A stretch of 32,973 bases of DNA from Bacteroidota bacterium. Its GTDB lineage: Bacteria; Bacteroidota; Bacteroidia; Flavobacteriales_F; PHOS-HE28. The notes beneath the pieces were generated by a model. It saw only the letters and a program-made list of their open reading frames with translations. It was not told where the DNA came from and made no database searches. The first letter of the stretch is position 1, and every line of letters begins with the position of its first letter. Below are positions 6,848 to 28,672 of this stretch, one piece after another. Both the position numbers and the translations under genes were made by a program. The stretch spans positions 1 to 32,973 of the forward strand of contig JAEYWT010000147.1 in NCBI GenBank assembly GCA_023428865.1, given 5' to 3'.

Positions 6848-6873
6848 GCAGCAGACAGTGGTGGATCTGCTGC
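6848..6873 (+). terminator. Stem-loop downstream of the rluB-like gene
   Basis: Perfect 8-bp stem GCAGCAGA (6848-6855) / TCTGCTGC (6866-6873) with a 10-nt loop. It is nested inside a second 7-bp pairing, CAGTTCG...CGAACTG. There is no U tract. Confidence 0.35.
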
Positions 6874-6971
6874 CAACTACCTGCTTCGAACTGTTCATCC
6901 GATCACGCCAGGCTTGGTGCGAATAACATCGCCCTGTGAACGAACTGCACGGATCTTGCCGTTAGTGGTTC

Positions 6972-9659
6972 ATGGGCCGGGGTACCTTTCGCACTTTCCC
7001 GATGATGCGTATCGCCCGCAACGTACTTCTTGCGCTGGCCGCCCTGTTCGTGCTGGGGTTCGGCACCTTGGTGGTGCTGGCCAACGTGTACGAAGTAGAG
7101 GTGAAGCAGAAGCTCATCGGTGCCCTCAACGCCCAGTTGAACGCACCGGTGAGCGTAAGCGGCATGGACCTCACCCTCATCGCGCGCTTCCCGCAGGCCA
7201 GCATGCGGTTGAACGATGTGCTGGCACACGAGGTGCGCACGGATGATGCACCAGCCGATACCCTGCTCTACGCCCGCGAGCTCTTCCTCGAATTCAGCCT
7301 GTGGGACATGTTCACCGGCAACTACGCCGTGCAGAAGGTACACGGTGTGGGCACCAAGCTCTACCCCGGATTGGACCGCAACGGCAACGAGAACTACATC
7401 GTTTGGAAGACGGACAGTAGTTCCACCGGGTTTGCAGCCATCGACCTCAAGAAAGTAAGCTTCGAAGGACTCGACCTGCGTTTCCGCGATGACCGGTCGG
7501 CGCTGGCCATCACCGCAAGCAGCAAGACCTTGGCCCTGAGCGGGCGTTTCGCCGAAGACCTCAACACCCTCAGCCTGAACGGCGACCTGCATCTGCTCAA
7601 CTGGGCGAATGGAAAGGATCTCGTGCTCAGCGACCGCCAAGCTTACTTGCGCCTCGCCATGGAATTCGGTGGGGCCGATGCACTCTTCCGCATAACCAAA
7701 GGCGAATTGAGCAGCGGTGCCGTGCCCTTGGAAGTGACCCTGGCTGTGACCCATAGTACCAAGGGCGATGAGTTGGACCTGCGTGCCAATGGCCTTGGCT
7801 TGGAGCTGGCCGATGTGGTGCGCCTCTTACCCGAAAGCCTAACCAAGGGCTTGGAGCGCTACACCATGAAGGGTGAAGTGGACCTGGCCGTACACTACGC
7901 GGGGCCGCTCAGTAGTCCCTCGCTCAGCGTTGGCGCCAAGCTGGTCAAAGGCAAACTGAAGGAACAGCGCAGTGGCACCTCCTTCACCGATGTGTTCGGC
8001 GAATTGGCATTGGACCTTACCCCGAAAGGCACACCACAGAAACTGGTGGTGAAGAACTTCTCGGCGAAGAGCGGCAACGGCAGCATCAGCGGCAACTGGC
8101 AGAGCAACGGCTTGGCCAACGCCACAGTGAAAGCCGATCTGAAAGCCGATATCGCCTTGGCGGAACTGCTCCGGTTCGCGCAAGTGGACACCTTGGAACA
8201 GGTGAGCGGTCGCTTGAAGGCCGACCTCAACGTGAAGGGGAAACTGCGCGACATCGCAGATATACAGCCCAAAGACCTGCGCGCGCTCACCATCACCGGC
8301 ACGCTCGCTTCTCGCGATGCCACATTGAAGATGAAAGGCGTGCGGCACCGGGTGGAGCACCTCGACGCCGACCTCTCCATCCACGGCAACGACGCCACTG
8401 TACAAGGCCTGAAAGCCCAGTTCCAAGGGAACGCGCTGGTACTGAACGGCACACTCCGCAACCTAGTGCCCTTTGTCCTTTTTGATGACCAACGGCTCGT
8501 GGTGGAAGCCAAAGGCAGCTCGCCAAGGATCGATATGGCAGCGCTGGTAAGCAGCGAGGGCGCCAACCCTTCCACGAAGGACTATCGCCTTACCCTACCC
8601 TCTTCCATCGAACTGGACCTACAGGCCCGTGTGGATGAACTGGTCTTCGAAGAATTCAAGGCCACTGGCATCACCGGTACGGTAACCATGCGCAACAAGG
8701 TGCTGCGTGTTTCGCCCATGAGTTTCGCCACCGCCAGTGGCCATGTCACCGGCGGATTGGAGTTGGATGCGCGTGATGCAACCCGGCACTACCCGCTCGC
8801 CATCAACGCCAGCTTGGAGGGCATAGAGCTACAGCAGCTCTTCCGCGAGTTCCAGGATTTCGGTCAGGACTTCATCGGGCACAGGCACATCAGCGGCCGC
8901 ACCAAAGCGCAAGTGGCATTCAACGCACCGCTTTCACCGGATATGAAACTGGACATGGACCGCTTGGTTTGTGTGATCGACATCGGCGTGGACAACGGCG
9001 CCATCAAGGGTCACGGACCACTATTGGAAGTGGCCGATCACCTGCAGAAGAACAAACTCGTTGCCCCTTTCGTGGATGTGCCTGAACTGCGCAAGCGCCT
9101 TGGTGACATCCGCTTTGCCCGGTTGGAGAACCAGATCCAGATCCGCAACGGAGCAGTGCATGTGCCGCAGATGCTGGTGAGCAGTTCCGTAATGGACATT
9201 GAACTGAGCGGTACACATTGGTTCGATGATCGGATCGACCACCACTTGAACTTCCGGCTGAGCGACCTCTTCCGCAAGGGGAACGTGAACGACGAATTCG
9301 GTCCAGTTGTGGACGATGGCACCGGCATGCGGATCTTCCTGCACATGTATGGCACAGCCAGCGACCCCCGGTTCGGTAACGATGGTGCCATGGCCGCAGC
9401 AAAACGCAAGAAACAGTTCCAAGAGGAGAAGCAGGAACTGAAACAGATCCTGCGCGAAGAGCTGGGGCTCTTCAAAGGGAAGACACAGCCGCCCACCGCC
9501 ACCACGAACTCCACACCGGCACCGCAGTTCCAAGTGATCCAGAACGACACCGCCCCCACCGCTGGCGCACAAACCGGACCACAGCGGCCGCGCAAAGGCC
9601 TCAGCAGGCTGATGAAAGACCAGCAGGAGGAGGAAGAAGTGATCTTCGAGGTGGACTGA
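6972..9659 (+). CDS. AsmA family / AsmA-like C-terminal region protein (envelope lipid-transfer superfamily)
   Basis: N-terminal anchor MRIARNVLLALAALFVLGFGTLVVLA, followed by a long beta-rich body with the typical start KQKLIGALNAQLNAPVSVSGMDLTLIARFPQASMRLNDV. Alternative ATG starts at 7002 and 7005. Confidence 0.7.
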   Translation: MGRGTFRTFPMMRIARNVLLALAALFVLGFGTLVVLANVYEVEVKQKLIGALNAQLNAPVSVSGMDLTLIARFPQASMRLNDVLAHEVRTDDAPADTLLYARELFLEFSLWDMFTGNYAVQKVHGVGTKLYPGLDRNGNENYIVWKTDSSSTGFAAIDLKKVSFEGLDLRFRDDRSALAITASSKTLALSGRFAEDLNTLSLNGDLHLLNWANGKDLVLSDRQAYLRLAMEFGGADALFRITKGELSSGAVPLEVTLAVTHSTKGDELDLRANGLGLELADVVRLLPESLTKGLERYTMKGEVDLAVHYAGPLSSPSLSVGAKLVKGKLKEQRSGTSFTDVFGELALDLTPKGTPQKLVVKNFSAKSGNGSISGNWQSNGLANATVKADLKADIALAELLRFAQVDTLEQVSGRLKADLNVKGKLRDIADIQPKDLRALTITGTLASRDATLKMKGVRHRVEHLDADLSIHGNDATVQGLKAQFQGNALVLNGTLRNLVPFVLFDDQRLVVEAKGSSPRIDMAALVSSEGANPSTKDYRLTLPSSIELDLQARVDELVFEEFKATGITGTVTMRNKVLRVSPMSFATASGHVTGGLELDARDATRHYPLAINASLEGIELQQLFREFQDFGQDFIGHRHISGRTKAQVAFNAPLSPDMKLDMDRLVCVIDIGVDNGAIKGHGPLLEVADHLQKNKLVAPFVDVPELRKRLGDIRFARLENQIQIRNGAVHVPQMLVSSSVMDIELSGTHWFDDRIDHHLNFRLSDLFRKGNVNDEFGPVVDDGTGMRIFLHMYGTASDPRFGNDGAMAAAKRKKQFQEEKQELKQILREELGLFKGKTQPPTATTNSTPAPQFQVIQNDTAPTAGAQTGPQRPRKGLSRLMKDQQEEEEVIFEVD

Positions 9660-9744: not shown

Positions 9745-11274
9745 ATGGACCTGTACTCCCGCAAACAACGTTGGAAGCTCGTGCTCGCCGTGGTGGCGAT
9801 GCTCATCGTGGGCGCATCGTTGTGGTACAGCAACACCATCGTGGAGCGCATTCGGGCCGAAGAGCGGCGTAAGGTGGAGCTCTGGGCCGAAGCGGTGAAG
9901 AACCGTGCGGAGCTGGTCAACTACACCGAGAAGCTCTTCGATCGCCTGCGCGAAGAAGAACGGAAGAAAGTACAGCTCTTCGCGGATGCCATGCAGCGCA
10001 TGGGCAGCAGCGATGACACTGACTTCTCCTTCTACCTGCGGGTGGTGAGCGACAACACCACCGTGCCTGTGGTGATCACCGACGAGAAGGGCAACAAGCG
10101 CTTCGATCGCAACATGGATAGTTCCGTAGTGAACCATCCTGAACGCCTTGCTGCGGAGATCGCCTCCATGGCCAAGGTCTACCGGCCGATCAGCATCTAC
10201 ATACCCGGCGTGGAGCGCCAGTTGCTCTACTACAGGGATTCCAAGGTAGTGACCGAGTTGGAAGAAGTGATGGACGGGATCATACGCTCCTTCATCTCCG
10301 AAACGGTGATGAGCACAGCCGTTGTACCCGTTATCTACACAGACAGCACCCAACGGCGTGTGATCGAATACGGGCACATCGACTCGTTGATCGCCCAGGA
10401 CAGCAGCGCCATGCAAGCCCGCATCCGCGCCATGGCACAGGCCAACGCACCCATCGCCATAGACCTGCCGGGAAAAGGGCGCAACTACATCTTCTACGAG
10501 GAATCGCTCGTGATCACCCAGCTGCGCTACTTCCCGTATGTGCAATTGATGATCCTCGGTCTCTTCCTGATCGTGGCCTATGCGCTCTTCAGCATCTTCC
10601 GCAATGCCGAACAGAACCAGGTATGGGTGGGCATGGCCAAAGAGACCGCTCACCAACTAGGCACACCCTTGAGCTCCCTCATGGCCTGGATGGAATTGCT
10701 GAAGGAGAACAACCCCGAAGCGGTAAGCGAGATGCGCAAGGATGTGGACCGACTGGAGGTGATCACCGAGCGGTTCAGCAAGATCGGATCAGCACCGGAC
10801 CTCACGTCGGAAAAGCTCTACCACACCTTACGCGCCACGGTGCTCTACCTAAGGCCACGCTTACCGGGCCGGGTGAAGATCGACATCCAGCAACCGCCGG
10901 ATGCCGATATGCTGGTCCCTTTGAACCGCGCGCTTTTCAGTTGGGTTATCGAGAACTTGATCCGCAATGCGGTGGACGCTATGGAGGGCGAAGGGTCCAT
11001 CAATGTGGAGATCGTTCCCGAAGGTGGCGAGGTACATGTGGACGTGACCGACAGTGGAAAAGGCATTCCGGCCTCTCAGCATCGTACTGTCTTCCAACCG
11101 GGCTTCACCACCAAGAAGCGCGGCTGGGGTCTCGGTCTATCCTTGAGCAAACGCATCATCGAACAATACCACGGCGGCAAGATCATGGTGAAGAAGAGCG
11201 CACCCGGCAAGGGCACCACGTTCCGGATCACCTTGAACCAAGGGGTGTTGAGCGGAGCGTTGGTGAGTGAGTGA
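9745..11274 (+). CDS. Sensor histidine kinase (two TM segments, ~270-aa extracytoplasmic domain, HisKA + HATPase_c); no adjacent response regulator
   Basis: H-box ETAHQLGTPLSSLMAWMELL, N-box ENLIRNAVDAM, DSGKGIP, and G-box GWGLGLSLSKRIIEQYHGG. ATG at 9745 (MDLYSRKQRWKLVLAVVAMLIV). The ORF-track start at 9667 is a TTG. Confidence 0.85.
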   Translation: MDLYSRKQRWKLVLAVVAMLIVGASLWYSNTIVERIRAEERRKVELWAEAVKNRAELVNYTEKLFDRLREEERKKVQLFADAMQRMGSSDDTDFSFYLRVVSDNTTVPVVITDEKGNKRFDRNMDSSVVNHPERLAAEIASMAKVYRPISIYIPGVERQLLYYRDSKVVTELEEVMDGIIRSFISETVMSTAVVPVIYTDSTQRRVIEYGHIDSLIAQDSSAMQARIRAMAQANAPIAIDLPGKGRNYIFYEESLVITQLRYFPYVQLMILGLFLIVAYALFSIFRNAEQNQVWVGMAKETAHQLGTPLSSLMAWMELLKENNPEAVSEMRKDVDRLEVITERFSKIGSAPDLTSEKLYHTLRATVLYLRPRLPGRVKIDIQQPPDADMLVPLNRALFSWVIENLIRNAVDAMEGEGSINVEIVPEGGEVHVDVTDSGKGIPASQHRTVFQPGFTTKKRGWGLGLSLSKRIIEQYHGGKIMVKKSAPGKGTTFRITLNQGVLSGALVSE

Positions 11275-11363
11275 GATGATGAATGCGGAACCTTCCATCA
11301 GGGCTCTGTCGACCGTGCAGATCGTCATCAGTTGCGAAATGAACCTTGAGCATTGACGAACGT

Positions 11364-12488
11364 ATGCCCGGCCTCTACTTCCATATCCCCTTCTGCCACC
11401 GGGCATGCACGTACTGCGACTTCCATTTCAGCACCTCCACCGTGCGTACACCGGTGCTCGATGCCATGGAACTGGAGTTGGTGCAGCGTTCCACGGAAAT
11501 TGGTGATGCATCCGTAGGCACCATCTACTTCGGTGGCGGAACGCCGAGTTTGCTTGGCCATGCCCGCATAGCAGCGTACATCCAACACGCGTGTGACCTT
11601 TTCCGGGTTGACCGCACAGCGGAGATCACCCTCGAAGCCAACCCGGACGACATCACCGCAGAGCGTTTGGACGAATGGCAAGCTGCCGGGATCACACGCA
11701 TCAGCCTGGGCACGCAGAGCTTTCGAGATGACCGCTTACTCTGGATGGGCCGTGCCCACAACGCCCAACAGGCCTTGACCAGCATCGGGCTGATCGAAAA
11801 GGCAGGTTTCTCTAGCTGGACCATCGACCTGATCTATGGTCTACCAGGTATGACCTTGGCCGAGTGGGACGAACAGCTTACCATGGCCTTGGACCACGGC
11901 ATGCCACACCTGAGCGCCTATTGCCTCACCGTGGAAGCGAAGACCGCACTGGCACACCAGGTGCGGTCCGGCCAAACAAACATGCCTAACGACGATGACC
12001 AGAGCGCGCAGTTCGACCGGCTGATGGAACGCATGGAACACGCCGGCCTGGATCATTACGAGATCAGCAACTTCGGAAGAGCGGGCCACTACTCCCGGCA
12101 CAACAGCAGTTATTGGGATGGTGTGCCCTACCTCGGTATCGGCCCTTCGGCGCACTCCTTCAATGGCACAACGCGTCGCTGGAACGTGGCCAACAACGCA
12201 CGATATGTGAAGGCATTACAGGAGCAAACCAACTACTGGGAAAGCGAAACACTAACACCCGCCCAGCGCACCAACGAGCGCTTGATGACAGGCCTACGGA
12301 CCGCCTTGGGGGTGGACCTTGCGAAATTGGAGCTGGATGCCCTGCTCCACAACTCGTCGGCCTTCCAACGGCATGTGTCGAACGGTCATCTGAGCATACG
12401 TGCTGGACGCTTAGTTTTGAGCAAAGCGGGTCGTCATTTCGCGGACCGCATCGCATCGGACCTCTTCGTCACCGACGATGATCGCTGA
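11364..12488 (+). CDS. hemW: Radical SAM family heme chaperone HemW (HemN-like, oxygen-independent coproporphyrinogen oxidase family)
   Basis: MPGLYFHIPFCHRACTYCDFHF (CxxxCxxC cluster motif), GGGTPS, and a HemN_C-like tail. ATG at 11364. Confidence 0.85.
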   Translation: MPGLYFHIPFCHRACTYCDFHFSTSTVRTPVLDAMELELVQRSTEIGDASVGTIYFGGGTPSLLGHARIAAYIQHACDLFRVDRTAEITLEANPDDITAERLDEWQAAGITRISLGTQSFRDDRLLWMGRAHNAQQALTSIGLIEKAGFSSWTIDLIYGLPGMTLAEWDEQLTMALDHGMPHLSAYCLTVEAKTALAHQVRSGQTNMPNDDDQSAQFDRLMERMEHAGLDHYEISNFGRAGHYSRHNSSYWDGVPYLGIGPSAHSFNGTTRRWNVANNARYVKALQEQTNYWESETLTPAQRTNERLMTGLRTALGVDLAKLELDALLHNSSAFQRHVSNGHLSIRAGRLVLSKAGRHFADRIASDLFVTDDDR

Positions 12489-19814: not shown

Positions 19815-20840
19815 CTACCCTTTCGGCAACCGCATACGCTTATCCCGGAAAACGCCGATGTACTGCAGGCTTACTTCCATGCCACCGCGATACATGGTCT
19901 GTGTGCGAAGCTTGCTGATGTTGATGTCGTAGCTCAGGGCCGCTACGAAATTGCGCTCCCACTCGAACTGGATCGTGGGAAGGATGGCATCACCTACGCG
20001 GTAGAAAGCGCCTAAGTAGAAGGCCGAAGAGTTCTTGTCGGTGGTGTAGCGGCTGTCCACGCCGATCCTACGGTGCAGCAGACCACCTATGTTGATCTCG
20101 CGACTGATGCCTTGTTGGGCTACGAAGAACTTCGGCAACCACACCCAGCGCTTCCCGTCGATGCGTAATTCGCCATGGACCACGTAGCGGCGTAGCAGCT
20201 CATCCTCTGCACTTCCGAAGAGGGAAACACGCGGTTGGTTCAGGTGGAAAGCAGAAGTACCACCCTTCCAGCGGATACCGCCTTTCAACTCTCCTTTCGC
20301 GAGAAGACCTGCGCCGAGATCAACGAAGCGCGAGGAGCTGTTCGCCATGGCTTCGTTGTTGGGTAACGTGGGGTCATAGCCCGCGCCATTGTATTGGCTG
20401 TCCCAGCGCAGGCCTTGGAATTGGGCACTGCGTTGGCCATAACCACCTTGCAGACCGAACGCAAGCAAGCTTGAAGCGCCACTGCGGATGGCGTAAGACA
20501 CGCTCAGGTTGGCTTGTGTATCACCGAATCGCGCAGCCCCGGCACGATCGCTGAAGGCATTCACCCCAAGACCCAAATAGCGCCCTTTGCCGAGCTTCCC
20601 TTCGAGCACAGGTGCATCGTAACTGAAGGCATCAGTGCGAAAAGGACTGCCGATACTGCGCCATTGTTCGCGATGGATGATCGCGAAACGTTGGTCGCCT
20701 TCCATGTCACCAGCGTTCGCCGGGTTGATGACCAAGGGTGCATTGAAGAACTGTCCGAAGTGGACATCTTGAGCCCATACGGACTGCTGTGCGACAAGGC
20801 CGCAGAGCACCAAGCGCATCATGTGCATCAGCGTCATCAT
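19815..20840 (-). CDS. PorP/SprF family type IX secretion system membrane protein
   Basis: Signal peptide, then DVHFGQFFNAPLVINPANAG, the hallmark PorP_SprF N-terminal motif. The body is beta-barrel-like. The start ATG overlaps the stop of the upstream cargo gene (ATGA). Confidence 0.85.
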   Translation of the reverse strand: MMTLMHMMRLVLCGLVAQQSVWAQDVHFGQFFNAPLVINPANAGDMEGDQRFAIIHREQWRSIGSPFRTDAFSYDAPVLEGKLGKGRYLGLGVNAFSDRAGAARFGDTQANLSVSYAIRSGASSLLAFGLQGGYGQRSAQFQGLRWDSQYNGAGYDPTLPNNEAMANSSSRFVDLGAGLLAKGELKGGIRWKGGTSAFHLNQPRVSLFGSAEDELLRRYVVHGELRIDGKRWVWLPKFFVAQQGISREINIGGLLHRRIGVDSRYTTDKNSSAFYLGAFYRVGDAILPTIQFEWERNFVAALSYDINISKLRTQTMYRGGMEVSLQYIGVFRDKRMRLPKG

Positions 20841-23800
20841 CGTACCAAGGTGATGTTACCTGTCCGTTCGATCCGCGTTCCATCCTCCGCTCGGGCGAAT
20901 AGCGTGTAGACGTATACGCCGCTTGCACTGCGATCGCCATTCGCCGTTCCATCCCATCCCTGATCCACACTTCCGCTGGCGAAAAGGCGACTGCCCCAAC
21001 GGTCAAAGACAGCGAATTCCATTTCCACCACGGTCGGCCCTCGAACGTATAGCACGTCGTTGTTCCCATCGCCGTTCGGGCTGAACACATCGGGAATGAA
21101 GACCACTTCACTATCGCGGATGCAGATATCGATGGCCATGCTATCTGCACAGAAACCTTCGTTCCAAACTACCAGCTGCGTGCGATAAGATCCGGCCACG
21201 CCATGGTCATAGGTCGGGTTCACACCCGGTTCGTAGGGGATGGTATCCGCATTGATCACCCAGTGACCACCCACCGCATTGTTGCTCAGATCGATGAAGG
21301 TTACCTCTCGCTGCTCAAATGGGATGCACGTTTCATTGGGGTTGCTGCTGTACAGCGCGGTGATGACCGGCCAGCTAGGTATGCGGATCAAGCTATCGGA
21401 CTGGCAACCGGTCTCTTGGTTCGTCACAGTGGCCATGGCGAGCCCCCCTGCTGGCAGTACGATGCTATCCGCCACGATCTCTTCGGAACCCGTGCTCCAG
21501 TGGAACACGTAGGTACCCGGTGCATCCACGCCACCGCTCACATACCCGGGTTCTCCATAGCATTGCATGTCCGATAAGGTGAACTGCGGCTCGAATGGCG
21601 GATGCACCACGATATCGATGGTCTCTGTGACCGGATCACTACAGCCATCGTTGATGAAGACCGTATAGGTGGTCGAGGTGGTAGGACTCACGCTTACGGT
21701 CGCCGCCGGGAATAGTCCATTATCCCATTGGAAAGCGAGCAGACCTTGAGGATCGCCGCCTTGTGTCGTGGCAACGATGCCTGTGCCACCTCCAGTGCAG
21801 ATCGGGTTATTGGAAGCGACCAGTTCCACACTGAGCGCAGGGTGATCCGAGAAGCGGACGGTATCACTCGACTGGCAATTGCCGGAACCGTACGTATAGA
21901 CCAAGGTGTAGTCGCCATCGGGCAAGGTGCTGGGGTTGAAACTTGTGGTACCCAAGCCTTGGAACACGCCACCCTCTGGCGCAAGTGAAATGATGATCTC
22001 CACCTCGTTGGAACAGTAACGTTCTTGCACGCCGCTGATGGTGGCTTGTAGGAAGGGTATCACCGTGACTTCCACACTATCGCGGCAGCCGCCCGGAGTA
22101 GTGTACTGGATCATATGTACCCCGCTGCCAGCGACCGCAGGATCGAACAGCCCAGCATCGTCCACCCCTGCCCCAGTGAAGTTGGCCCCAGGAGGCACGT
22201 TCGCCAGGTAGAACGGACCAATGGAAGCGCAGACGGTAAGTGGATCGTTGGGGAGTTGTGCAGGATGAATGATCGCGATCAACGCATCACTGCATGTATT
22301 CGCTTCATACGTTAGCAGGTGTACACCAATACCAGCCTGTTGCGGCCGGAAGAACCAGTCGCCGTCGCCATTCTGCTGGATGGAAGCTCCTGACCAATCG
22401 CCATCCCATGGCCTTCTTCCCGTGGTTTCCTCATTCAATTGAAAGGCCGCATCGCCAGCGCAGAAGAAGAGGGTATCTACGTCCAAGCGCGTAAAGCCTA
22501 CCCAAATGCCGATGGTATCCACACAACCGTTGGGCGCGAAATAGAGGATCTCATCCCAACCATTGCCAGCTTGCACAGGATCGTATGTACCCGCAATCGC
22601 ATCCACAATGCCCTCGCCGGTCCATGTTCCACCTGCGGGAATAGCAGCGGGTTGCAAGGTGAAAGGAGCGGGCTGATCGGGACATGCGCTGCGGCTTCCT
22701 CCAATGTCCACCGGTTTCACATGGATGGTGAATTGTTCGTCGCAACCGTGCAGCGCATAGGTCAAGGTGTGCGTTCCACCGCCGGCTTCGTCCGGATCGA
22801 AGGTGCCGCGCAGCGAGTCCACGATACCGGCACCATACCAGCGACCGCCCCACGGCAGTGCGGGTATATCGAACGGCACGTTGCTCTCGCAGACGGTATC
22901 GAGCTGGGTTTCTCCGGTTATCACATCCACATTGATGGTCTTCGTATCGGAGCATACGCCCGCCGAATAGGTGACCACGTAAGAACCGACCGTGCTGGGG
23001 TCGAACCAACCATCTGGCGTGATGAAGGGCCCATTCCAAACACCCCCGGCCGGTGTGTGGTCAACGATCCGGAAAGGTGCGGTCCCGGGACAGGCAGCCT
23101 CATCAAGTCCAGCATCCATACTATCCACGAACAAGGTGATCTGCGCTTCGCAGCCGCCTGGAATACCATAGCTGAGCACATGCGCACCAGGGCCTGCGGT
23201 ATCCGGATCGAAGGTTCCGGCAAGGCTATCGAGGATGCCAGCACCGCTCCACCATCCCCCGGGTGGTTGGCTTTGTATATCGAACGCCTCGGCCGACTGG
23301 CATACCGAAGCAGGCACTCCAATGATCTGCGGATCCAGCACCACGATGGTGACGGAATGGCTCGCCTGCGCCCCTGTTCCATTCTCTGTAGCCACCACGG
23401 AATACGTCGTTGTCGTGGTAGGACATACGCAGATCGGTCCACGTACCGCTGGAAGACCGTTATCCCACACATACGTGTAGGCCAGACACCCGTTCACATC
23501 GGCGACCAGGTCGATACAGGATCCAGAGCAAATGGTATCAGCGGTAGCGATGATCTCCACATCGATCGGACACGTGCTGATCTGGGTGCTCGCGTGCAAG
23601 GTGAAATACCAGAGCGAATCACATCGATCGCGCAGACCGATGCGGAAGGAAAGGTCATACGGACAATTGCGCTCGAAGGGTGGCGCCAGCATGAGCCGTA
23701 GGTTCTGCGTATAACCCGATGCACAGCCCATGGGCTGCACGCCGACAACATCCGGTGCGCCTTCACCGATCAGCTGCACCACATCAACCACCATGGAGTC

Positions 23801-24319
23801 GCATGCCACGGGGTAACTGAAGTGTAGATCCAACCGGGAACTGTTGCACGCAGGTGCTGTGGGAATGGTCATTACCGGAGGCACGGGTGGCGCAGCATAG
23901 CTGGTCCATTGCGCCTCGAAACCACAATACGCCACGTTCTGGTCGCTCACGAAATGCACGGTGAGCACGCCGCTGTTCGCCACGATGGGCGGTGGTGCCG
24001 TTGTGCCCGAATACGCCGGACCGATCTGTGGTGAGTTGATAGAAGGACCGTCGTGGAAACTGATGAAGTCGTAACCCTGTTCGAGACAGAACAGCGGGCT
24101 GAACACCAAGGTGATCTGGCTGCCCGCATCGATGGTGAAGACGAGGTCCTCGTTATTGCCGTAGAGGTTGCCACCCGGCCCGGCTTCGCTATCCAGTAGA
24201 ATGCCCTTGCACTCGGTGACCGTGGTGTCGGCCATGTTGAATTCTGGCAACACCTGTCCGTGCGCTACACCGAGCGACACACCTGCCACGAGGGCCAGCG
24301 ATGTGCGTAAGCTGGACAT
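20837..24319 (-). CDS. Large T9SS cargo or adhesin: signal peptide, CUB-like domain, Cys-rich region, Ig-like modules, seven ~70-aa repeats, PKD-like domain, type-B (gliding motility-associated) C-terminal domain
   Basis: C-terminus VFIPDVFSPNGDGNNDVLYV...FDRWGSRLF...GWDGTANG...ASGVYVYTL...GNITLVR matches the CHU_C / type-B CTD pattern. See the sub-features for the other domains. Confidence 0.85.
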   Translation of the reverse strand: MSSLRTSLALVAGVSLGVAHGQVLPEFNMADTTVTECKGILLDSEAGPGGNLYGNNEDLVFTIDAGSQITLVFSPLFCLEQGYDFISFHDGPSINSPQIGPAYSGTTAPPPIVANSGVLTVHFVSDQNVAYCGFEAQWTSYAAPPVPPVMTIPTAPACNSSRLDLHFSYPVACDSMVVDVVQLIGEGAPDVVGVQPMGCASGYTQNLRLMLAPPFERNCPYDLSFRIGLRDRCDSLWYFTLHASTQISTCPIDVEIIATADTICSGSCIDLVADVNGCLAYTYVWDNGLPAVRGPICVCPTTTTTYSVVATENGTGAQASHSVTIVVLDPQIIGVPASVCQSAEAFDIQSQPPGGWWSGAGILDSLAGTFDPDTAGPGAHVLSYGIPGGCEAQITLFVDSMDAGLDEAACPGTAPFRIVDHTPAGGVWNGPFITPDGWFDPSTVGSYVVTYSAGVCSDTKTINVDVITGETQLDTVCESNVPFDIPALPWGGRWYGAGIVDSLRGTFDPDEAGGGTHTLTYALHGCDEQFTIHVKPVDIGGSRSACPDQPAPFTLQPAAIPAGGTWTGEGIVDAIAGTYDPVQAGNGWDEILYFAPNGCVDTIGIWVGFTRLDVDTLFFCAGDAAFQLNEETTGRRPWDGDWSGASIQQNGDGDWFFRPQQAGIGVHLLTYEANTCSDALIAIIHPAQLPNDPLTVCASIGPFYLANVPPGANFTGAGVDDAGLFDPAVAGSGVHMIQYTTPGGCRDSVEVTVIPFLQATISGVQERYCSNEVEIIISLAPEGGVFQGLGTTSFNPSTLPDGDYTLVYTYGSGNCQSSDTVRFSDHPALSVELVASNNPICTGGGTGIVATTQGGDPQGLLAFQWDNGLFPAATVSVSPTTSTTYTVFINDGCSDPVTETIDIVVHPPFEPQFTLSDMQCYGEPGYVSGGVDAPGTYVFHWSTGSEEIVADSIVLPAGGLAMATVTNQETGCQSDSLIRIPSWPVITALYSSNPNETCIPFEQREVTFIDLSNNAVGGHWVINADTIPYEPGVNPTYDHGVAGSYRTQLVVWNEGFCADSMAIDICIRDSEVVFIPDVFSPNGDGNNDVLYVRGPTVVEMEFAVFDRWGSRLFASGSVDQGWDGTANGDRSASGVYVYTLFARAEDGTRIERTGNITLVR
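21845..23317 (-). repeat. Seven divergent tandem protein repeats (~65-75 aa each, residues ~335-825)
   Basis: Recurring pattern C..(..)PF.(5-9)P.GG.W.G.GI.D...G.FDP..AG.G.H.L.Y....GC......V. Examples are PPGGWWSGAGILDSLAGTFDPDTAGPGAHVLSY, PWGGRWYGAGIVDSLRGTFDPDEAGGGTHTLTY and PAGGTWTGEGIVDAIAGTYDPVQAGNGW. The repeats are protein-level only, with no near-identical DNA copies. Confidence 0.7.
23903..24211 (-). other. CUB-like domain (residues ~37-139 of the 1160-aa protein)
   Basis: CKGILLDSEAGPGGNLYGNNEDLVFTIDAGSQITLVFSPLFCLEQGYDFISFHDGPSINSPQIGPAYSG...SGVLTVHFVSDQNVAYCGFEAQW aligns by eye to the CUB pattern C..G.......Y.....C.W.I.....I.L.F..F.LE...YD.v.i.DG......G...G...P......S....l...F.SD.s....GF.A.y. 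Confidence 0.55.
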
Positions 24320-24322
24320 GGT

Positions 24323-24772
24323 TCACGGGTTCTGCGCAGCGTTGATGGTAATGGCCGATGTAGTGATGGTATTGCTGCGGTTGCCCGCGCGATCCTCCAC
24401 GTAGAAGCTATAGGTCATCACTTCCTGGTCACTATTGCCGAGCAGGAAAAGCGGCGAAAGTTCCACCACCAGTTCGCCTTGTATGGCGATCTCGTGATCG
24501 GGTGGTGCCAGTGGTATGATATGGTAACCATCGGCTACGGAAAGTCGACTGTCCTTCACCCACAATGAGTGGTCATCCGGATCGGAGCGCCCTAGATCCC
24601 CATCGCCATCCTTGTAGCTGAACCGCAGCATCACCGGTGTTTGGAATTCGGTGATCTGCGCTGGTCCCACGCTGGTCAGTTCGATGGAAGGTTCCTTCGG
24701 CATCACCTCCACCTTCTCCTTCTTACAGGCCGATAGTGCGATCACGAAAAGGAATATGACCACCTTGTTCAT
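24323..24772 (-). CDS. Small lipoprotein, predicted beta-sandwich, unknown function
   Basis: Lipobox MNKVVIFLFVIALSAC-KKE, and an acidic DGDGDLGRSDPDD loop. ATGA overlap with the upstream gene, and its stop lies 3 nt before the cargo gene start. Confidence 0.6.
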   Translation of the reverse strand: MNKVVIFLFVIALSACKKEKVEVMPKEPSIELTSVGPAQITEFQTPVMLRFSYKDGDGDLGRSDPDDHSLWVKDSRLSVADGYHIIPLAPPDHEIAIQGELVVELSPLFLLGNSDQEVMTYSFYVEDRAGNRSNTITTSAITINAAQNP

Positions 24773-25710
24773 GCGGCAACGCGTAAAGTGAAGTAGTTGG
24801 TCATAGGAGTTCCGGTATTGTCATCCGGGATCTCCGTTGGCACGTCGTGATCACCGTCCTGCACATAGACCCTAACGAAGAGCACAGTGCCCGGTGCATG
24901 GTCGCCGAGCTGAAGGGAGACCTTGTGGGTGAAGGTGATGCTGCTGTTGCCGAAGTCGGGTCCCGAAACGGTCGAACCGGTCTGCAGATCCAAAGCAGGA
25001 ATGGCTTCGAAGGCCGTGCCCGCAAGAGCCACCTTGACTTTGTTGTGGGTAAGCGTGCTGGGTGGTGTGGTGTCGTCGGAAAAGGCGAACCAGAGATCCA
25101 CATTGCCCGCTGGCACAGTGATCGGTTGAATGCCTTCTCCCGTTCCACGAGCAAAGGCACCGGTGGTCGCATCAGCTGGAAAAGCCATCAGTCCGGTTAC
25201 CTGTGGTTGCAAATTTCCAGCGCCTGGAAGCTGACCGAACATGTCGCGCGCACCGGCAGCGATCCAATTATCGATGGCTGCTTTGTACGCTGCGCTGTTG
25301 GCTGGCCAGTCGGTGTTCTCGGTGAAGCCCAGCGGCATGATACCCGACGTGTTCGGAATGAAGATGTTCAGCCGCGCGTGAAGCAGGGAGGCGCTCACAT
25401 CGCCCGGCACCACGCGGTGCGTGTAACTGTTCTGCGGATCATTGGCGATCACCGGGTGCAGCACCAGCGAGTTGTACGAACTGCCTATGCTGCGGAACTC
25501 CGGCTCGAAAGAACCGTCGTGGCAACCGCTGATAGCGCAGTTCGGGCGCAGGATCCGCTGATGGATCCAAGCGAAGTTGCTCTGCGGAATGGCGTCCACC
25601 GTGGGGTTCGGATCGCGGCGCTCCAACGCATCGTACGGATCGGGCGTCTCCTTCTTGCACGCTGCCAGCACGAACACGATGAACGATATGCAGAGCAGGA
25701 ACTTCTTCAT
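24769..25710 (-). CDS. Lipoprotein with an N-terminal PSCyt-like (Planctomycete cytochrome-c-like) motif C-x4-CH and a C-terminal beta-rich domain
   Basis: Lipobox MKKFLLCISFIVFVLAAC-KKE. FAWIHQRILRPNCAISGCHDG...HRVVPGDVSASLLHARL...MP resembles the PSCyt pattern f..V.PIl...C..CH...(vvPG.p..S.L..rl). Confidence 0.55.
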   Translation of the reverse strand: MKKFLLCISFIVFVLAACKKETPDPYDALERRDPNPTVDAIPQSNFAWIHQRILRPNCAISGCHDGSFEPEFRSIGSSYNSLVLHPVIANDPQNSYTHRVVPGDVSASLLHARLNIFIPNTSGIMPLGFTENTDWPANSAAYKAAIDNWIAAGARDMFGQLPGAGNLQPQVTGLMAFPADATTGAFARGTGEGIQPITVPAGNVDLWFAFSDDTTPPSTLTHNKVKVALAGTAFEAIPALDLQTGSTVSGPDFGNSSITFTHKVSLQLGDHAPGTVLFVRVYVQDGDHDVPTEIPDDNTGTPMTNYFTLRVAA

Positions 25711-25712: not shown

Positions 25713-27044
25713 TCAGATGCGATCGAAGAGTGACTGTGTCCCCGCGTGCAACATGCCTGCGCCCATCACCTCGTTCTTCACGCCGAGCACCTCAGCGATC
25801 GTGGGCACTACATCGGTAACGATACCAACTGGGTTGCCCTCACCACCGATCGAGAGGCTCGTCGGTACGCTCGGTCCGGCCATCATGCCGAACACGCGCA
25901 TGGCATTGGCATCGCTGTGGTCGAAACTGTACCAGTCGTTCTGATCGCGGATGGCGTTGGGTTCGGCGTTGCGACCGCATTCGGGTACCGCGATGATCAC
26001 CGTGTTGTTGGCCATGCCGGGCACCTGGTTCTGTATGTAGTCCCACAGATGGCCTACGGCATGGTCTGCACGGTGCATGGCCGCGAGGTATCCGGTGAAA
26101 CTACTGTGGCAGCCATCTACGCCATCCATATTCACCACGGTAAGGGCCGGCTTGAACCACTTGATCACTTCGCAGGCATAACCCACGGTACGTAGATCAC
26201 CGGCATCGTGTACTGGAGGGTGTGCGATGGTGCCGTTCTGTGTCTTGGTGAACATTTCGGCCATGAAGGCTTTGATGTCCTGCTTCTCTTCAGGTGTGTT
26301 ACCGATGCTCGTGGGCACTGTGCCGTAACGCTCGAAGCTGTTGTCCAGAAAGGCCTTCATCTCGTAGATCGGCTCCAACTGGTCCTGCGGATGATACACC
26401 TTGGCGTTGGCCAGATATTGGTCACCCGCCGGGCCAAAGGTGATGTTCGGTGCGAAGAAGTTGGCTCCGTAACGTGCCCCATAGTTGGGGTTGATGCTGT
26501 AGTTGAGCAAGGGCACACTGTTGCCGATGCCATTGCCCACGAACCAGGTCTTCGTAGCGGGCAATCCGGCATGGCGCCGGAGATACTCGAAGATGGTCGG
26601 GTTGAGCGGCTTCTGTTGCAGGCCTTGTGTGGAAGCGGTGCCACCTTGTAGCAAGGAGTTCAAGCCACCATAGTGACCGGCGTTCACCGCCCGCATTTCG
26701 CGGAATAGGGTGCCCTGCTGTTGTAGGGTCTGCCCGAGGATCGGTTGTATCGGGTTGATCCCGCCGAGGCCGGTGCCGTAGACTATCTTCTGCGGAGGCG
26801 GTGTGCCGTTCAACATGTTGTAGAGTATGTTGCCCTCCACGTTGTCCGTCTGTGCATCGGCTAGATACCGTTGCAGTACACTCTCCTGTTGACGAACACC
26901 ACCGGCGAACATCACCAGCACCACATGTTCGGCCAGCTGCATACCCGATGCAGCGAACAAACGACCGCTGGGCAGGATGTATGGCGCAGCGAACAACCCC
27001 GCGGCGGCGGCACTCGTACGCGTGATGAACTTCCTGCGGTCCAT
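25713..27044 (-). CDS. Tat-signal DUF1501-like protein (alkaline-phosphatase/sulfatase-fold superfamily), divergent
   Basis: Twin-arginine leader MDRRKFITRTSAAAAGLFAAP. VVLVMFAGGVRQQES resembles l.l.GG.S..Dtf. VVNMDGVDGCHSS resembles the GGWDTH position. IIAVPECGRNAEPN...FDHSD resembles GEFGRTP..N..GRDHW. Confidence 0.6.
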   Translation of the reverse strand: MDRRKFITRTSAAAAGLFAAPYILPSGRLFAASGMQLAEHVVLVMFAGGVRQQESVLQRYLADAQTDNVEGNILYNMLNGTPPPQKIVYGTGLGGINPIQPILGQTLQQQGTLFREMRAVNAGHYGGLNSLLQGGTASTQGLQQKPLNPTIFEYLRRHAGLPATKTWFVGNGIGNSVPLLNYSINPNYGARYGANFFAPNITFGPAGDQYLANAKVYHPQDQLEPIYEMKAFLDNSFERYGTVPTSIGNTPEEKQDIKAFMAEMFTKTQNGTIAHPPVHDAGDLRTVGYACEVIKWFKPALTVVNMDGVDGCHSSFTGYLAAMHRADHAVGHLWDYIQNQVPGMANNTVIIAVPECGRNAEPNAIRDQNDWYSFDHSDANAMRVFGMMAGPSVPTSLSIGGEGNPVGIVTDVVPTIAEVLGVKNEVMGAGMLHAGTQSLFDRI

Positions 27045-27056: not shown

Positions 27057-27560
27057 TCAGTAGAACAGGTATTCCTCGCTCAGTGCGAAGGAGAAGTAGA
27101 TCAGTTCGGGTGTCACGTACGGATCCGCAGTGATCGTGTTGCGGAACCAGGTCTTCTCCGCTTCCGTGGGGTTGCGGACCAAGAAGCGGTTATACGTAGC
27201 GGTGATGAAACCGTCCACATCGGCATGCATCTCCTCCTGGGTCGGGATGATCACCCCGGGCTTGTTCATGAAGTTGCTGATGATCACTTCCCGTGCTAGC
27301 TGCTTGTCGCCAATGCTCTGGATGCATTGGTCGATCTTGTACAGATCACCGGGTGAGAGGGCCGTTTGGAACAGGTTGGCATGCAGGATCGCCGCATACT
27401 CCTGGTTGGTCTTCTCACGCTCCTTGTTGCCGCTGTATTGCGCCAGGTCCACCGGCTCCAGCTCGTACACGAACACCTCCTTCTTGCAACTGGCCAGAAG
27501 CAGGGTCCAGGCCAGGAAGAACCCGGCCCTACCGATCATGCTATGGAAGCTGCGGACCAT
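27057..27560 (-). CDS. Lipoprotein with helical DUF1549/DUF4214-like motif units
   Basis: Lipobox ...FFLAWTLLLASC-KKE. Unit FITATYNRFLVRNPTEAEKTWFRNTITADPYVTPELIYFSFALSEEY. Confidence 0.55.
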   Translation of the reverse strand: MVRSFHSMIGRAGFFLAWTLLLASCKKEVFVYELEPVDLAQYSGNKEREKTNQEYAAILHANLFQTALSPGDLYKIDQCIQSIGDKQLAREVIISNFMNKPGVIIPTQEEMHADVDGFITATYNRFLVRNPTEAEKTWFRNTITADPYVTPELIYFSFALSEEYLFY

Positions 27561-27748: not shown

Positions 27749-28672
27749 TCAGCTATTCACCAGGCCGGCATATTCATCGCCGACGAGGATGGCACGTTGC
27801 AAGCGTCGCAGGTCGTGATCGGCCATGAACGCGGTGGTGAGTTGGTAGGCTTCGTATGCACCCGGCTCGCGACCGAGGTACGAGCGGAAGAACAGACGCA
27901 CCAGCCCTTCATGGCCTTCGGCGCTGTTCACGAGGACCTGCAGGTAACCGCCTTTGTTCTGTGCGCTCTGGCCGAAGAGGATGGCACCGCTGTTGTGTTC
28001 CACCATGATATAGGCGGCGTCGAACTCGGCGTTGGTGGGGTAGCGGAAGAGCAGGTTGTCGAAACTCGCGTTGATGAAGTTGAACGCGTTCATATTGATC
28101 TCGTCATACACGTCGTTGAACATCATCCGGCGCGCCATCTCCACGGCATTGATCTGCCCTTCGCGATATGCCACCCGTGCTCCTTTCAGTTGGAGCAGAC
28201 GTTGCAACGCGCTGTTGCTTTCACTGGCGGCAATGGCGTTCCCGCTCAACGAATCGTTCAGTGCGGCTTGTGCGGCATTACCGATGAAACCATCGATCAC
28301 TTCATCGCTCACACCTTCTATGAAGCGGGCTTTGAACTGTTCGTAGGTGCGCTGGGCGTAGGCATGCTTGTACGATGAATCGCCCTGCACGAAGGCCGAG
28401 CTCGTCATCAGCTTGTTCACCAACGCCGTGCGGGCTTCCAACGAAAGACCTCCTGCGTTCAATGCGTTCACCTCGGCGCTCATCTCCGCATCCACCGGTT
28501 CGCGGCCGAGCAGATCGATGAACAAGCGGTTCACGTAATTGCGCACCACCACCGAAGGCACCGCATCGTAGTCCGGCGCCAGTTTGTTCGGTCGCACCAC
28601 CACTTCTTCCTTCTTACAGGACACAAGTAGCAGCACGGCAGCGAACAACGATATGGAAGGGAGCGTGTTCAA
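27749..28672 (-). CDS. Lipoprotein with repeated helical DUF1549/DUF4214-like units; first gene of the cluster
   Basis: Lipobox MNTLPSISLFAAVLLLVSC-KKEE. Units VVRNYVNRLFIDLLGREPVDAEMSAEVNAL...LVNKLMTSSAF and LVRLFFRSYLGREPGAYEAYQLTTAFMADHDLRRLQRAILVGDEYAG. The only in-frame start is a TTG at 28672 and the n-region carries no charge, so the start is uncertain. Confidence 0.55.
   Translation of the reverse strand: MNTLPSISLFAAVLLLVSCKKEEVVVRPNKLAPDYDAVPSVVVRNYVNRLFIDLLGREPVDAEMSAEVNALNAGGLSLEARTALVNKLMTSSAFVQGDSSYKHAYAQRTYEQFKARFIEGVSDEVIDGFIGNAAQAALNDSLSGNAIAASESNSALQRLLQLKGARVAYREGQINAVEMARRMMFNDVYDEINMNAFNFINASFDNLLFRYPTNAEFDAAYIMVEHNSGAILFGQSAQNKGGYLQVLVNSAEGHEGLVRLFFRSYLGREPGAYEAYQLTTAFMADHDLRRLQRAILVGDEYAGLVNS

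Follow-up and report, generated by a model that had tools for sequence, protein, structure and literature searches.

A lipoprotein with a conserved C-x4-CH motif beside a DUF1501-like gene in Bacteroidia is probably a divergent c-type cytochrome

The window analyzed here, a 32,973-nucleotide stretch of a Bacteroidota genome, carries a cassette of five genes, A to E, on its minus strand (Table 1). The order of these genes is kept in all 22 loci compared, with a match to gene A in 21; no match to gene A was found at the expected position in locus L104. Four of the products (A, B, D, and E) are lipoproteins, and the mature N-termini of all four read C-K-K-E. The paralogy of genes B and A is seen with hhalign (probability 96%, E 1e-9). 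Matches of the gene A family to the Pfam models PSCyt2, PSD1, and DUF4214 are weak and sub-threshold, and kinship of gene A to DUF1549/DUF1553 was found to be unsupported, as hhalign matched only one 50-aa unit (E 0.004, probability 8%). Homology of gene E to the C-terminal domain of gene D was rejected because only the signal peptides align. In clade-1 loci, and in these alone, the cassette is followed by a gene for a T9SS cargo protein; clade-2 cassettes are without the T9SS pair. The other member of this pair, a PorP/SprF-like protein, shares 58-64% identity with orthologs that bear PF11751.

Table 1. Positions of the cassette genes, the gene D features, and the neighboring T9SS pair in the window
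Feature	Position	Strand	Basis or remark
PorP/SprF-like partner of T9SS cargo	19815..20840	minus	orthologs carry PF11751
T9SS cargo, CUB + CHU_C type-B C-terminal domain, accessory	20837..24319	minus	Pfam CHU_C E 8.7e-15, CUB E 1.3e-7
Gene E, 149-aa lipoprotein, no known family	24323..24772	minus	position kept in 22/22 loci
Gene D, 313-aa lipoprotein, cytochrome c-like N-domain + beta-sandwich C-domain	24769..25710	minus	ORF
Gene D C-terminal beta-sandwich, residues 170-311, function not assigned	24778..25203	minus	AF2 full-length model
Gene D N-terminal PSCyt1/FoxE-type cytochrome c-like domain (putative), residues 37-166	25213..25602	minus	hhalign, AF2
Gene D W149-I-x-x-G-A154, C-terminal helix signature W..GA of N-domain	25249..25266	minus	
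Gene D M125-P126, putative distal Met ligand	25333..25338	minus	conservation; alignment to MP of PSCyt1-like domains and FoxE
Gene D VVPGD block, 'vvPG.p..S.L' signature as in PSCyt1 and FoxE domain 2	25399..25413	minus	
Gene D C-x4-CH motif, C58 AISG C63 H64, putative haem c site with proximal His	25519..25539	minus	
Gene D lipoprotein signal peptide, lipobox LAAC, mature start C-K-K-E-T	25657..25710	minus	sequence
Gene C, 443-aa Tat-signal protein, remote DUF1501 (alkaline-phosphatase superfamily) relative	25713..27044	minus	hhalign, leader
Gene B, 167-aa lipoprotein, gene A paralog, DUF4214-like helical units	27057..27560	minus	position kept in 22/22 loci
Gene A, 307-aa lipoprotein, weak DUF4214/PSCyt2(DUF1549)/PSD1-like segments	27749..28672	minus	kept in 21/22 loci

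The initial annotation had singled out the minus-strand codons TGC GCT ATC AGC GGT TGC CAC, read as CAISGCH, in a lipoprotein gene 2 nt downstream of a DUF1501-like gene. These codons lie at 25539..25519 and encode residues 58-64 of gene D, and the quoted context of helix, DG, later block, and MP is entirely present in the sequence: NFAWIHQRILRPN precedes the motif, DG follows it, and VVPGDVSASLLHARL stands 36 residues on and is followed by IMPL. The N-terminus, MKKFLLCISFIVFVLAAC followed by KKET, reads as a lipoprotein signal with a visible lipobox, whose cysteine, C18, is invariant both in a 24-sequence alignment and across two paralogous clades. The start codon does lie 2 nt past the stop codon of gene C, and the gene D stop codon overlaps the start of the next ORF (ATGA). 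Beyond the lipobox-derived N-terminus, C58 and C63 are the only cysteines of the mature protein; they are thus kept as a pair with the adjoining histidine. The gene D family comprises more than 1,000 representative clusters at 50% identity, and its members are named 'hypothetical protein' in all sources consulted. In one family (f26), the C-terminal domain is absent or replaced, and the N-terminal domain alone adjoins gene C.

We gathered 268 homologs of gene D, 10 of which are fragments without the N-terminus. All 258 full-length homologs have C-x4-CHDG-FEP. C-x4-CH is the first motif match in 257 of them; in the other, the N-terminus is over-extended and contains a spurious match, which was the one scored. 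In the 24-sequence alignment, in which identity falls to 40%, residues C58, A59, S61, G62, C63, H64, D65, G66, F68, E69, and P70 are invariant, as are M125-P126, 61 residues past the motif, and the helix W149..G153-A154. Across the two paralogous clades, with identity down to 30%, C58, C63, H64, D65, G66, F68, E69, and P70 are at least 95% conserved together with M125 and P126, and R99, V100, and P102 around the VPG block are conserved in both clades, as is the W..GA helix. Both cysteines, the histidine, and the spacer, a survey of which the initial annotation had proposed, are therefore conserved in the family and in the second paralogous clade. Short motifs do arise at random, and we estimate ~6e-4 expected occurrences of this one per protein of the size and composition of gene D. 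A functionless chance string is nevertheless vanishingly improbable and already refuted by conservation throughout the family and both clades; judged from these alignments, C-x4-CH in gene D is far beyond chance.

The PSCyt-like layout proposed for the region around the motif was borne out by profile-profile comparison but not by direct searches with the PF07635 model. Pfam gave no match for the gene D protein (none to PF07635 at E ≤ 1), the isolated N-terminal domain was without a PSCyt1 match even at E ≤ 10, and 0 of 91 gene D family members matched PSCyt1 even at E 10. A whole-genome scan with PF07635 (gathering score, 22 bits) found another locus, on contig C17, and missed gene D. The NCBIfam cytochrome models missed the family as well, their sole match being a weak one to c551 (E 0.0026) that spans the signal peptide, and a homolog search with the N-terminal domain alone returned only unnamed fragments of gene D's own family. 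When 253 N-terminal domains of the gene D family were compared by hhalign with 22 Bacteroidia domains that have above-threshold Pfam PSCyt1 scores and carry C-x4-CH, the two profiles aligned over 84 columns with a probability of 98.9% and an E value of 2.5e-17, against 0.05 for the reversed control. A second, independent run against C-x4-CH PSCyt1 domains gave E 1.4e-13, and comparison with canonical CXXCH PSCyt1 domains gave E 1.2e-9. A plain HMM built from the 22 domains recovered all 253 gene D family domains. These comparisons establish homology with PSCyt1 domains. Within the overall explanation that we hold to be probable, residues 37-166 of gene D belong to the PSCyt1/FoxE type of c-type cytochrome domain, from whose other members they have diverged strongly.

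In the profile alignment, the C-x4-CH of gene D matches CXXCH with a two-residue insertion between the cysteines. The VVPGD block aligns with PSCyt1, and FoxE shows IIPGDPEASKVF at the equivalent position; the MP falls on the invariant MP of PSCyt1-like domains and on RMPP/RMPL of FoxE, and W..GA aligns with the 'WI..GA.N' of both. FoxE, the dihaem Fe(II) oxidoreductase of Rhodobacter ferrooxidans SW2 (5MAB), is the nearest solved structure that can be reached via the C-x4-CH PSCyt1 profile. This profile matches it with E 4.8e-12, and both FoxE domains align, including IIPGDPEASKVF, RMPP, and WIKQGAK. The canonical-CXXCH sister profile matches FoxE, hydrazine synthase alpha, and the cytochromes c552, c6, c551, and CcoP. 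FoxE and the cytochromes c552, c6, and c551 were reached only through these intermediate PSCyt1 profiles; neither the gene D family profile nor its model matched FoxE directly, and sequence and profile searches of the PDB with the gene D family gave nothing meaningful (only alginate lyase and SiaC at E ~1).

Gene D and PSCyt1 (PF07635) share the same order of elements, namely a hydrophobic helix F..I.P.L...C, Cys-Cys-His, L.(S/T)Y..(L/I)M, vvPG.p..S.L, MP, and W(I/V)..GA.N. Unlike PSCyt1, gene D has an insertion of 20-25 residues (HPVIANDPQNSYTHR) ahead of the VPG block, a longer loop between MP and the last helix, an invariant CHDG-x-FEP-(D/E)F extension specific to its family, and a fusion to a beta-sandwich rather than to PSCyt2/PSD1. 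FoxE is a soluble periplasmic protein of Proteobacteria with two canonical CXXCH domains and a PQQ beta-propeller partner, FoxY, whereas gene D encodes a lipoprotein with one C-x4-CH domain and has a DUF1501-like gene as its partner.

Modeled alone with AF2, the N-terminal domain forms four helices with a pLDDT of 88.5. One helix ends three residues before C58, another precedes M125, and a long helix closes the domain, a predicted order of elements that is the same as in class I cytochromes c. A shallower first model of the full-length protein had a pLDDT of about 30 near the motif and of 80-96 in the C-terminal domain. Foldseek searches of the PDB with the confident N-terminal model gave 0 matches at E ≤ 10, so the cytochrome fold is without structural confirmation for this domain. 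The full-length model gave only weak matches of the Ig-like, NPC2, RhoGDI, and CopC types (E > 1e-3), all to the C-terminal domain.

The initial annotation needs one correction, in that C-x4-CH is not confined to gene D. It is the majority form of Bacteroidia PSCyt1 domains, being present in 23 of the 30 best above-threshold matches, and the Pfam PSCyt1 model therefore already tolerates this variant. The string C-A-x-S-G-C-H-(D/N) also occurs in above-threshold PSCyt1 domains (e.g., CAMSGCHDA). In Bacteroidia, the C-x4-CH domain often stands in tandem with a canonical CXXCH domain inside one lipoprotein, which argues that both are haem sites, and the pattern of C-x4-CH plus MP recurs in many unrelated architectures, including beta-propeller fusions. 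No earlier description of CX4CH or PSCyt1 in Bacteroidota came up in our literature searches.

The same site could belong to a degenerate, haem-free cytochrome-like domain that acts as a docking scaffold for the DUF1501-like protein, with CX4C as a disulfide or, together with H64/D65, as a small Zn/Cu/Fe site. The non-canonical cysteine spacing would fit this reading, as would the failure of any cytochrome HMM to detect the family and of Foldseek to match any solved cytochrome; the invariant CH-DG-x-FEP, foreign to ordinary cytochromes c, might mark another kind of site. However, a relic would be unlikely to keep Cys, Cys, His, and a distant Met-Pro over more than 250 sequences, two clades, and 30% identity, and the contiguous C63-H64-D65 cannot easily chelate one metal ion. 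The recurrence of C-x4-CH plus MP in unrelated architectures beside canonical CXXCH domains also speaks against degeneration, as does the acceptance of CX3CH and CX4CH as haem c sites in genome surveys (PMC10734462). We consider a degenerate domain quite unlikely. The evidence favors haem over metal or a disulfide at the C-x4-CH of gene D but falls short of proof. The CX4CH sites of the Desulfovibrio tetrahaem cytochrome c3 have the same four-residue spacing between thioether cysteines, but c3 has bis-His haems in compact multihaem folds, unlike the putative single haem, class-I-like helical domain, and Met ligand of gene D. No sequence kinship with c3 was seen, which appeared only at E > 0.5 when the PDB was searched with the C-x4-CH PSCyt1 profile.

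Gene C has no Pfam match, and a genome scan with PF07394 found two other genes but not gene C. As the initial annotation had proposed, the protein does resemble DUF1501, although remotely: hhalign aligned the two with a probability of 92% and E 6e-7 over the C-terminal 170 columns only. The alignment includes the DTH, EFGR, and DHG motifs (VDGCHS with GfDTH, and ECGRN..DHSD with EFGR..DHG). The N-terminal GGNDG motif of DUF1501 is replaced in gene C, and the likeness covers only the C-terminal half. The leader, MDRRKFI..AAAAGLFAAP, has the form RR-x-F, with R3, R4, and F6 invariant across both clades; TIGR01409 scores it at E 0.03, just under its cut-off, and homologs are named 'twin-arginine translocation signal domain-containing protein' in the databases. 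Of the cassette genes, gene C shows the strongest conservation (its top matches share 62-93% identity), and its family is carried by the named isolate Sanyastnella coralliicola. A Cys-rich redox cluster in gene C was considered and rejected, as C291 and C356 are specific to clade 1 and C312 is present in 19 of 22 sequences.

Genes C and D are adjacent in all 22 loci. Among 301 Bacteroidia genomes, gene D is found in 85, gene C in 86, and both in 84 (84 of 87 carriers). The three exceptions are one fragmented gene C and two single-gene matches, at least one of which lies beside a contig end. The pairing of PSCyt and DUF1501 that the initial annotation cited from Planctomycetota has a counterpart at this locus. 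Strict adjacency, co-inheritance, and the highest conservation in the cassette point to the gene C protein as its catalytic core. That this enzyme would need electrons is something we infer from gene linkage alone.

The explanation that we favor, with more confidence than doubt, is that gene D encodes a monohaem c-type cytochrome whose CXXCH loop is longer by two inserted residues and which serves as redox partner of the DUF1501-like enzyme. The protein has a conserved Cys-Cys-His site and a conserved candidate distal ligand, M125. The apoprotein would be exported by Sec/SPII, and one haem c would be thioether-linked to C58 and C63 by System I (CcmF/H), with H64 as the proximal and M125 of the Met-Pro as the distal ligand. 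The holo-domain, which the lipid anchor would hold at the membrane and which continues into the beta-sandwich domain, would then serve the DUF1501-like metalloenzyme, encoded 2 nt upstream and exported by Tat, as its dedicated carrier of single electrons. Covalent attachment of the haem, its ligation by His and Met, the role as a partner, and the substrate and direction of electron transfer are inferred.

An SPII signal on gene D and cytochrome c maturation genes in the genome and genus are consistent with such a pathway. At the end of its contig C377, this genome has a CcmF fragment; the genome is a MAG that is 81% complete and whose assembly is without an intact ccm operon. CcmB, CcmC, and CcmF are present in one genome of the same genus, a Cytochrom_C_asm gene is found in 12 of 12 same-genus genomes, and every high-quality cassette carrier checked has such a gene. 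Between Ccm and CcsBA, the alternatives raised in the initial annotation, it was the System I (Ccm) genes that were found. A dedicated System II lyase for this genus was rejected, since both Cytochrom_C_asm genes belong to System I, as CcmC and CcmF. System I matures the CX4CH haem sites of multihaem cytochromes such as c3. To our knowledge, haem is experimentally known among Pfam PSCyt1 proteins only in FoxE relatives, and it is not known from experiments on any C-x4-CH PSCyt1 domain. FoxE-type haems have Cys-Cys-His plus Met ligation, and in FoxE each Met binds the haem in the opposite domain (PMC10654088); in a monomer, M125 might therefore not be the ligand of its own haem.

Gene D might alternatively bind haem c and itself be the catalytic or sensing unit, for example as a FoxE-like protein that oxidizes Fe(II) or a different soluble reductant at the cell envelope or surface, or as a redox/ligand sensor, with the other cassette proteins being structural. 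FoxE, the nearest solved relative, itself oxidizes Fe(II) (PMC10654088), and clade-1 cassettes come with a T9SS surface protein and PorP; clade-2 cassettes, however, lack that pair. The C-K-K-E starts resemble in part the K-(D/E)2 signal for surface export in Bacteroidota (PMC5080379), but C-K-K-E-T has only one acidic residue, and surface exposure of gene D is therefore not confidently predicted. The strict adjacency and co-inheritance with a Tat enzyme that is the most conserved product of the cassette also count against this alternative, which we view as unlikely, though less so than a haem-free domain.

Gene modules of DUF1501 with PSCyt1/PSCyt2/PSD1 are known from Planctomycetes, Verrucomicrobia, and Lentisphaerae (Kamneva et al. 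2012, PMC3542564; He et al. 2017, PMC5615132), and we also found canonical PSCyt1-PSCyt2-PSD1 and DUF1501 pairs in some Bacteroidia. As in the PVC module, the cassette has a Tat-signal DUF1501-type gene beside a PSCyt1-type gene with a cytochrome motif, in a tightly conserved arrangement. It differs in that both partners have diverged beyond the reach of the Pfam models, and in that gene D carries C-x4-CH and is without PSCyt2 (DUF1549) and PSD1 (DUF1553). Three extra small lipoproteins are present, two of them with DUF4214/DUF1549-like helical units, and the Bacteroidia cassette occurs in 1-2 copies per genome, not dozens.

A broader reading is tentative, and we think it somewhat improbable: C-x4-CH could be the standard haem site of a Bacteroidota-wide class of FoxE/PSCyt1-type monohaem domains, and the cassette an unrecognized redox machine of the envelope or surface. 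Gene D may then connect a Tat-exported DUF1501-type enzyme with either the respiratory chain or a substrate outside the cell, for instance Fe(II), and the clade-1 cassette may work with a dedicated T9SS surface protein.

Judged by its genes, the gene D cassette appears to extend the cytochrome and DUF1501 module from Planctomycetes into Bacteroidota. This module has, since 2004-2012, been flagged as large, conserved, and wholly unexplained in PVC bacteria (PMC3542564, PMC5615132). A compact version, in one or two copies, is present in about 28% of the sampled Bacteroidia genomes, and the cassette defines at least five protein families without a Pfam or NCBIfam model. Since Bacteroidia include cultivable, tractable Flavobacteriales without dozens of paralogs, the function of the module is testable by simple knock-outs. 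If gene D is haem-bound, the substrate range of cytochrome c maturation would be wider than multihaem c3-type proteins, and counts of cytochromes in Bacteroidota genomes that are based on CXXCH would be too low.

Gene D, a 313-residue lipoprotein of the five-gene cassette A-B-C-D-E, carries the motif C-A-I-S-G-C-H on the minus strand, with codons as read in the initial annotation, which had also described the product as a lipoprotein encoded 2 nt downstream of a neighboring gene. Both descriptions are accurate: the protein begins with a lipoprotein signal, MKKFLLCISFIVFVLAAC followed by KKET, and a 2-nt gap separates the stop of the 443-aa ORF (gene C) from the gene D ATG. The start of the 149-aa ORF (gene E) overlaps the gene D stop. 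C58 and C63 are the only cysteines of the mature gene D protein. Coordinates are collected in the table.

Features of the cassette and of related loci
Feature	Location	Strand	Basis or remark
CAISGCH, C58-A-I-S-G-C63-H64 of gene D	25539..25519	minus	codons TGC GCT ATC AGC GGT TGC CAC
Gene D, 313 aa	24769..25710	minus	ORF reading
Gene A, 307-aa lipoprotein	27749-28672	minus	paralogue of gene B
Gene B, 167-aa lipoprotein	27057-27560	minus	paralogue of gene A
C-K-K-E after lipobox, all four cassette lipoproteins	28607-28618, 27477-27488, 25648-25659, 24716-24727	minus	
297-aa lipoprotein, two PSCyt1 repeats (Pfam 33.9 bits)	own genome, L002, contig C17, 788-1681	minus	PF07635 scan
118-aa CANCH cytochrome lipoprotein, after the 297-aa one	own genome, L002, contig C17, 428-784	minus	adjoining ORF
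ccmF, C-terminal 520 residues of CcmF	own genome, contig C377, bases 1-1635	plus	matches CcmF_C
Canonical PVC-type arrangement	L114 (G041:C239), 1097-7070	minus	
Gene C in two fragments with internal stops	L096 (G119), 10037-11382	minus	
Gene C in two pieces	G032:C58:63638-64690		gene D not detected in G032

A word-indexed search returned 235 homologues of gene D from Flavobacteriales, Bacteroidia or Bacteroidota MAGs, all unnamed or "hypothetical" and none with a precomputed Pfam domain. An exhaustive profile search gave 1,037 representative clusters for the family at E ≤ 1e-3 (213 at E ≤ 1e-30). After 10 fragments without the N-terminus were left out of a collected set of 268 sequences, both cysteines, the histidine and the spacer length were found to be kept in 258/258 full-length homologues, one of which had initially been mis-scored owing to an over-extended N-terminus. 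The alternative that the C-x4-CH of gene D is there by chance is refuted by this conservation. The family consensus is C-A-(N/L/V)-(S/P)-G-C-H-D-G-x-F-E-P, and in a 24-sequence alignment reaching down to 40% identity, C58, A59, S61, G62, C63, H64, D65, G66, F68, E69 and P70 are invariant, as are R99, P102, S108, R113, M125, P126, W149, I150, G153 and A154 downstream. The paralogous clade 2 (~30% identity) retains C-x4-CHDG-x-FEPD(F/Y) and a later Met-Pro. At five clade-2 loci, gene D also has a conserved block, R(I/L)TNCCFVN(Q/E)(D/N)DRMPQDN, that places an adjacent Cys-Cys pair immediately ahead of Met-Pro and is missing from clade 1.

Pfam scans found no match for the gene D protein, for its isolated N-domain (residues 37-166) at E ≤ 10, or for any of 91 family members, and NCBIfam gave one weak c551 match (E 0.0026), whose span takes in the signal peptide. 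When 61 Bacteroidia genomes were scanned with PF07635, above-threshold matches were obtained in 30. At the 30 best loci, the matched domain has C-x4-CH in 23 and CXXCH in 7; the former is usually C-A-x-(S/T/P)-G-C-H-(D/N), such as CAMSGCHDA, and its Pfam alignment begins at model position 3, so the first Cys is skipped. Alignment of 253 family N-domains with 22 genuine (above-threshold) Bacteroidia PSCyt1 domains using hhalign gave a probability of 98.9% and an E value of 2.5e-17 over 84 columns, compared with E 0.05 and 1% for the reversed 22-domain template. A plain HMM built from the 22 domains recovered all 253 N-domains (best E 1e-17). Separate hhalign runs yielded E 1.4e-13 against C-x4-CH PSCyt1 domains and E 1.2e-9 against canonical CXXCH domains. 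In the alignment to CXXCH domains the first and the second Cys are matched across a two-residue gap, so that C-x4-CH is a CXXCH into which two residues have been inserted. Every profile comparison aligned the MP and W..GA blocks. The PSCyt-like layout proposed in the initial annotation thus stands on profile-profile comparison and fails in direct Pfam HMM scans: as judged from sequence, gene D lacks formal Pfam PSCyt1 membership and is demonstrably homologous to PSCyt1.

Against the PDB, the C-x4-CH PSCyt1 profile matched both domains of FoxE (5MAB, E 4.8e-12) and hydrazine synthase alpha (E 0.003). The canonical sister profile matched hydrazine synthase alpha (E 5e-6), FoxE (E 3e-5), cytochromes c552, c6 and c551, CcoP, and the bc1 cytochrome c subunit. 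FoxE, a c-type cytochrome with two haems, has Cys-Cys-His/Met ligation at both, and the Met of each domain ligates the haem of the other (PMC10654088). Neither a PDB sequence search nor a profile search with the gene D family itself reached a PDB sequence. The full-length AF2 model (24 sequences) had a pLDDT of ~30 near the motif and a confident C-terminal beta-sandwich (residues 170-311), for which Foldseek found at most weak Ig-like/NPC2/RhoGDI/CopC-type matches. Modeled alone with 91 sequences, the N-domain reached a pLDDT of 88.5 and a pTM of 0.86, with four predicted helices (residues 46-54, 75-82, 109-115 and 135-151). One helix stops three residues ahead of C58, another precedes M125, and the long C-terminal one bears W149; in the model, this order of helices and motifs is that of class I cytochromes c. 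Foldseek returned zero PDB matches for the N-domain model, and its fold assignment is thus based on sequence profiles.

In the window's own genome, PF07635 detected a locus other than gene D, on contig C17, where the 297-aa lipoprotein carries CTMGNGCH (C-x5-CH) in its first repeat and CQGCH in its second. As in gene D, W..GA.N closes all PSCyt1-type domains of this contig, and C-x5-CH is a second non-canonical spacing within the genome. Six other Bacteroidia loci encode ~480-540-aa fusions of an N-terminal C-x4-CH PSCyt1 domain (CAV(S/T)GCH) to a beta-propeller with sub-threshold NCBIfam matches to PQQ-associated propeller, hydrazine synthase beta and YncE, resembling the cytochrome (FoxE) and propeller (FoxY) pair joined in one protein. 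At eight more, small lipoproteins have two or three tandem cytochrome domains, the first consistently C-x4-CH and the later ones CXXCH. Some Bacteroidia have the canonical PVC-type arrangement; L114 has three such genes in a row, in which PSCyt1 proteins of 783 aa and 724 aa flank a DUF1501 protein of full score (514 bits).

Genome surveys count CX4CH, like CX3CH, among the haem c motifs (PMC10734462). Another alternative, that the gene D domain is a relic that no longer binds haem, we consider unlikely. In the Ccm check proposed in the initial annotation, PF01578 was absent from the window's MAG (81% complete) and present in 12/12 genomes of the same genus, one of which has identified CcmB, CcmC and CcmF genes (System I). 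System I is able to mature CX3CH and CX4CH sites. The MAG itself contains a ccmF cut by a contig end, so that no more than part of the System I operon is assembled there. System I is widespread in the class, as shown by CcmF_C matches in 122 of the 151 Bacteroidia genomes sampled, and four high-quality cassette carriers without such a match all have Cytochrom_C_asm genes. A maturation gene was present in every complete carrier genome checked, although this is a weak test. The invariant Cys-x4-Cys-His and Met-Pro, the PSCyt1/FoxE homology, Sec/SPII export and the Ccm machinery lead us to favor a covalently attached haem c, ligated by His and Met, as the most likely, and indeed probable, state of gene D.

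Gene order was the same around two divergent gene D homologues. With 20 further fetched loci, and both paralogous clades included, it was kept in 22/22: a ~300-aa lipoprotein, a ~165-aa lipoprotein, a ~440-aa Tat protein, gene D and a ~150-aa lipoprotein. Downstream of clade-1 cassettes lie genes for a T9SS cargo protein (CHU_C) and for PorP/SprF. Among 301 sampled Bacteroidia genomes, 85 had gene D (strong match), 86 had gene C and 84 had both; the exceptions were one genome with a fragmented gene C and two single-gene matches, at least one of them next to the end of a contig. Within the window's genus, only 2/8 other genomes carry the cassette. The split gene C copies in G119 and G032 look like decaying cassettes. 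In six genomes of one family, gene D matches profile positions 1 to ~177 alone, and the cytochrome-like domain is kept beside gene C with the beta-sandwich absent or replaced, which suggests that the N-domain is the indispensable part of gene D.

Gene C, called DUF1501-like in the initial annotation, had no Pfam match and no PDB relative; hhalign aligns it to DUF1501 (probability 92%, E 6e-7) over 170 C-terminal columns, a remote relationship. This alignment pairs VDGCHS with GfDTH and ECGRN..DHSD with EFGR..DHG. R3, R4, F6, D310, H313, D375 and H376 are kept in both clades, and no cysteines are conserved across both. Genes A and B are paralogous to one another (hhalign E 1e-9), and the only segment that they have in common with PSCyt2-PSD1 proteins is a short DUF4214/DUF1549-like unit. 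Gene A orthologues recurrently show a series of sub-threshold matches: DUF4214 first, then PSCyt2 (N-terminal part), and last PSD1 (C-terminal part). K-(D/E)2 is a published surface export signal of Bacteroidota (PMC5080379); the CKKEE of gene A fits it, the other three, including C-K-K-E-T of gene D, fit in part, and CKK(E/D) recurs in orthologues of the cassette lipoproteins.

The strict linkage of gene D to gene C makes a dedicated electron-transfer partnership with this Tat-exported DUF1501-like protein the most economical function, one that we consider about evenly balanced. The remaining alternative, which we consider less likely, is a haem protein with a FoxE-like catalytic or sensing role of its own. 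Our literature searches found no account of C-x4-CH PSCyt1 domains or of the five-gene cassette. A DUF1501 + PSCyt1/PSCyt2/PSD1 module has been described from PVC bacteria (PMC3542564, PMC5615132), and this locus represents it in Bacteroidia in a split and highly divergent form.
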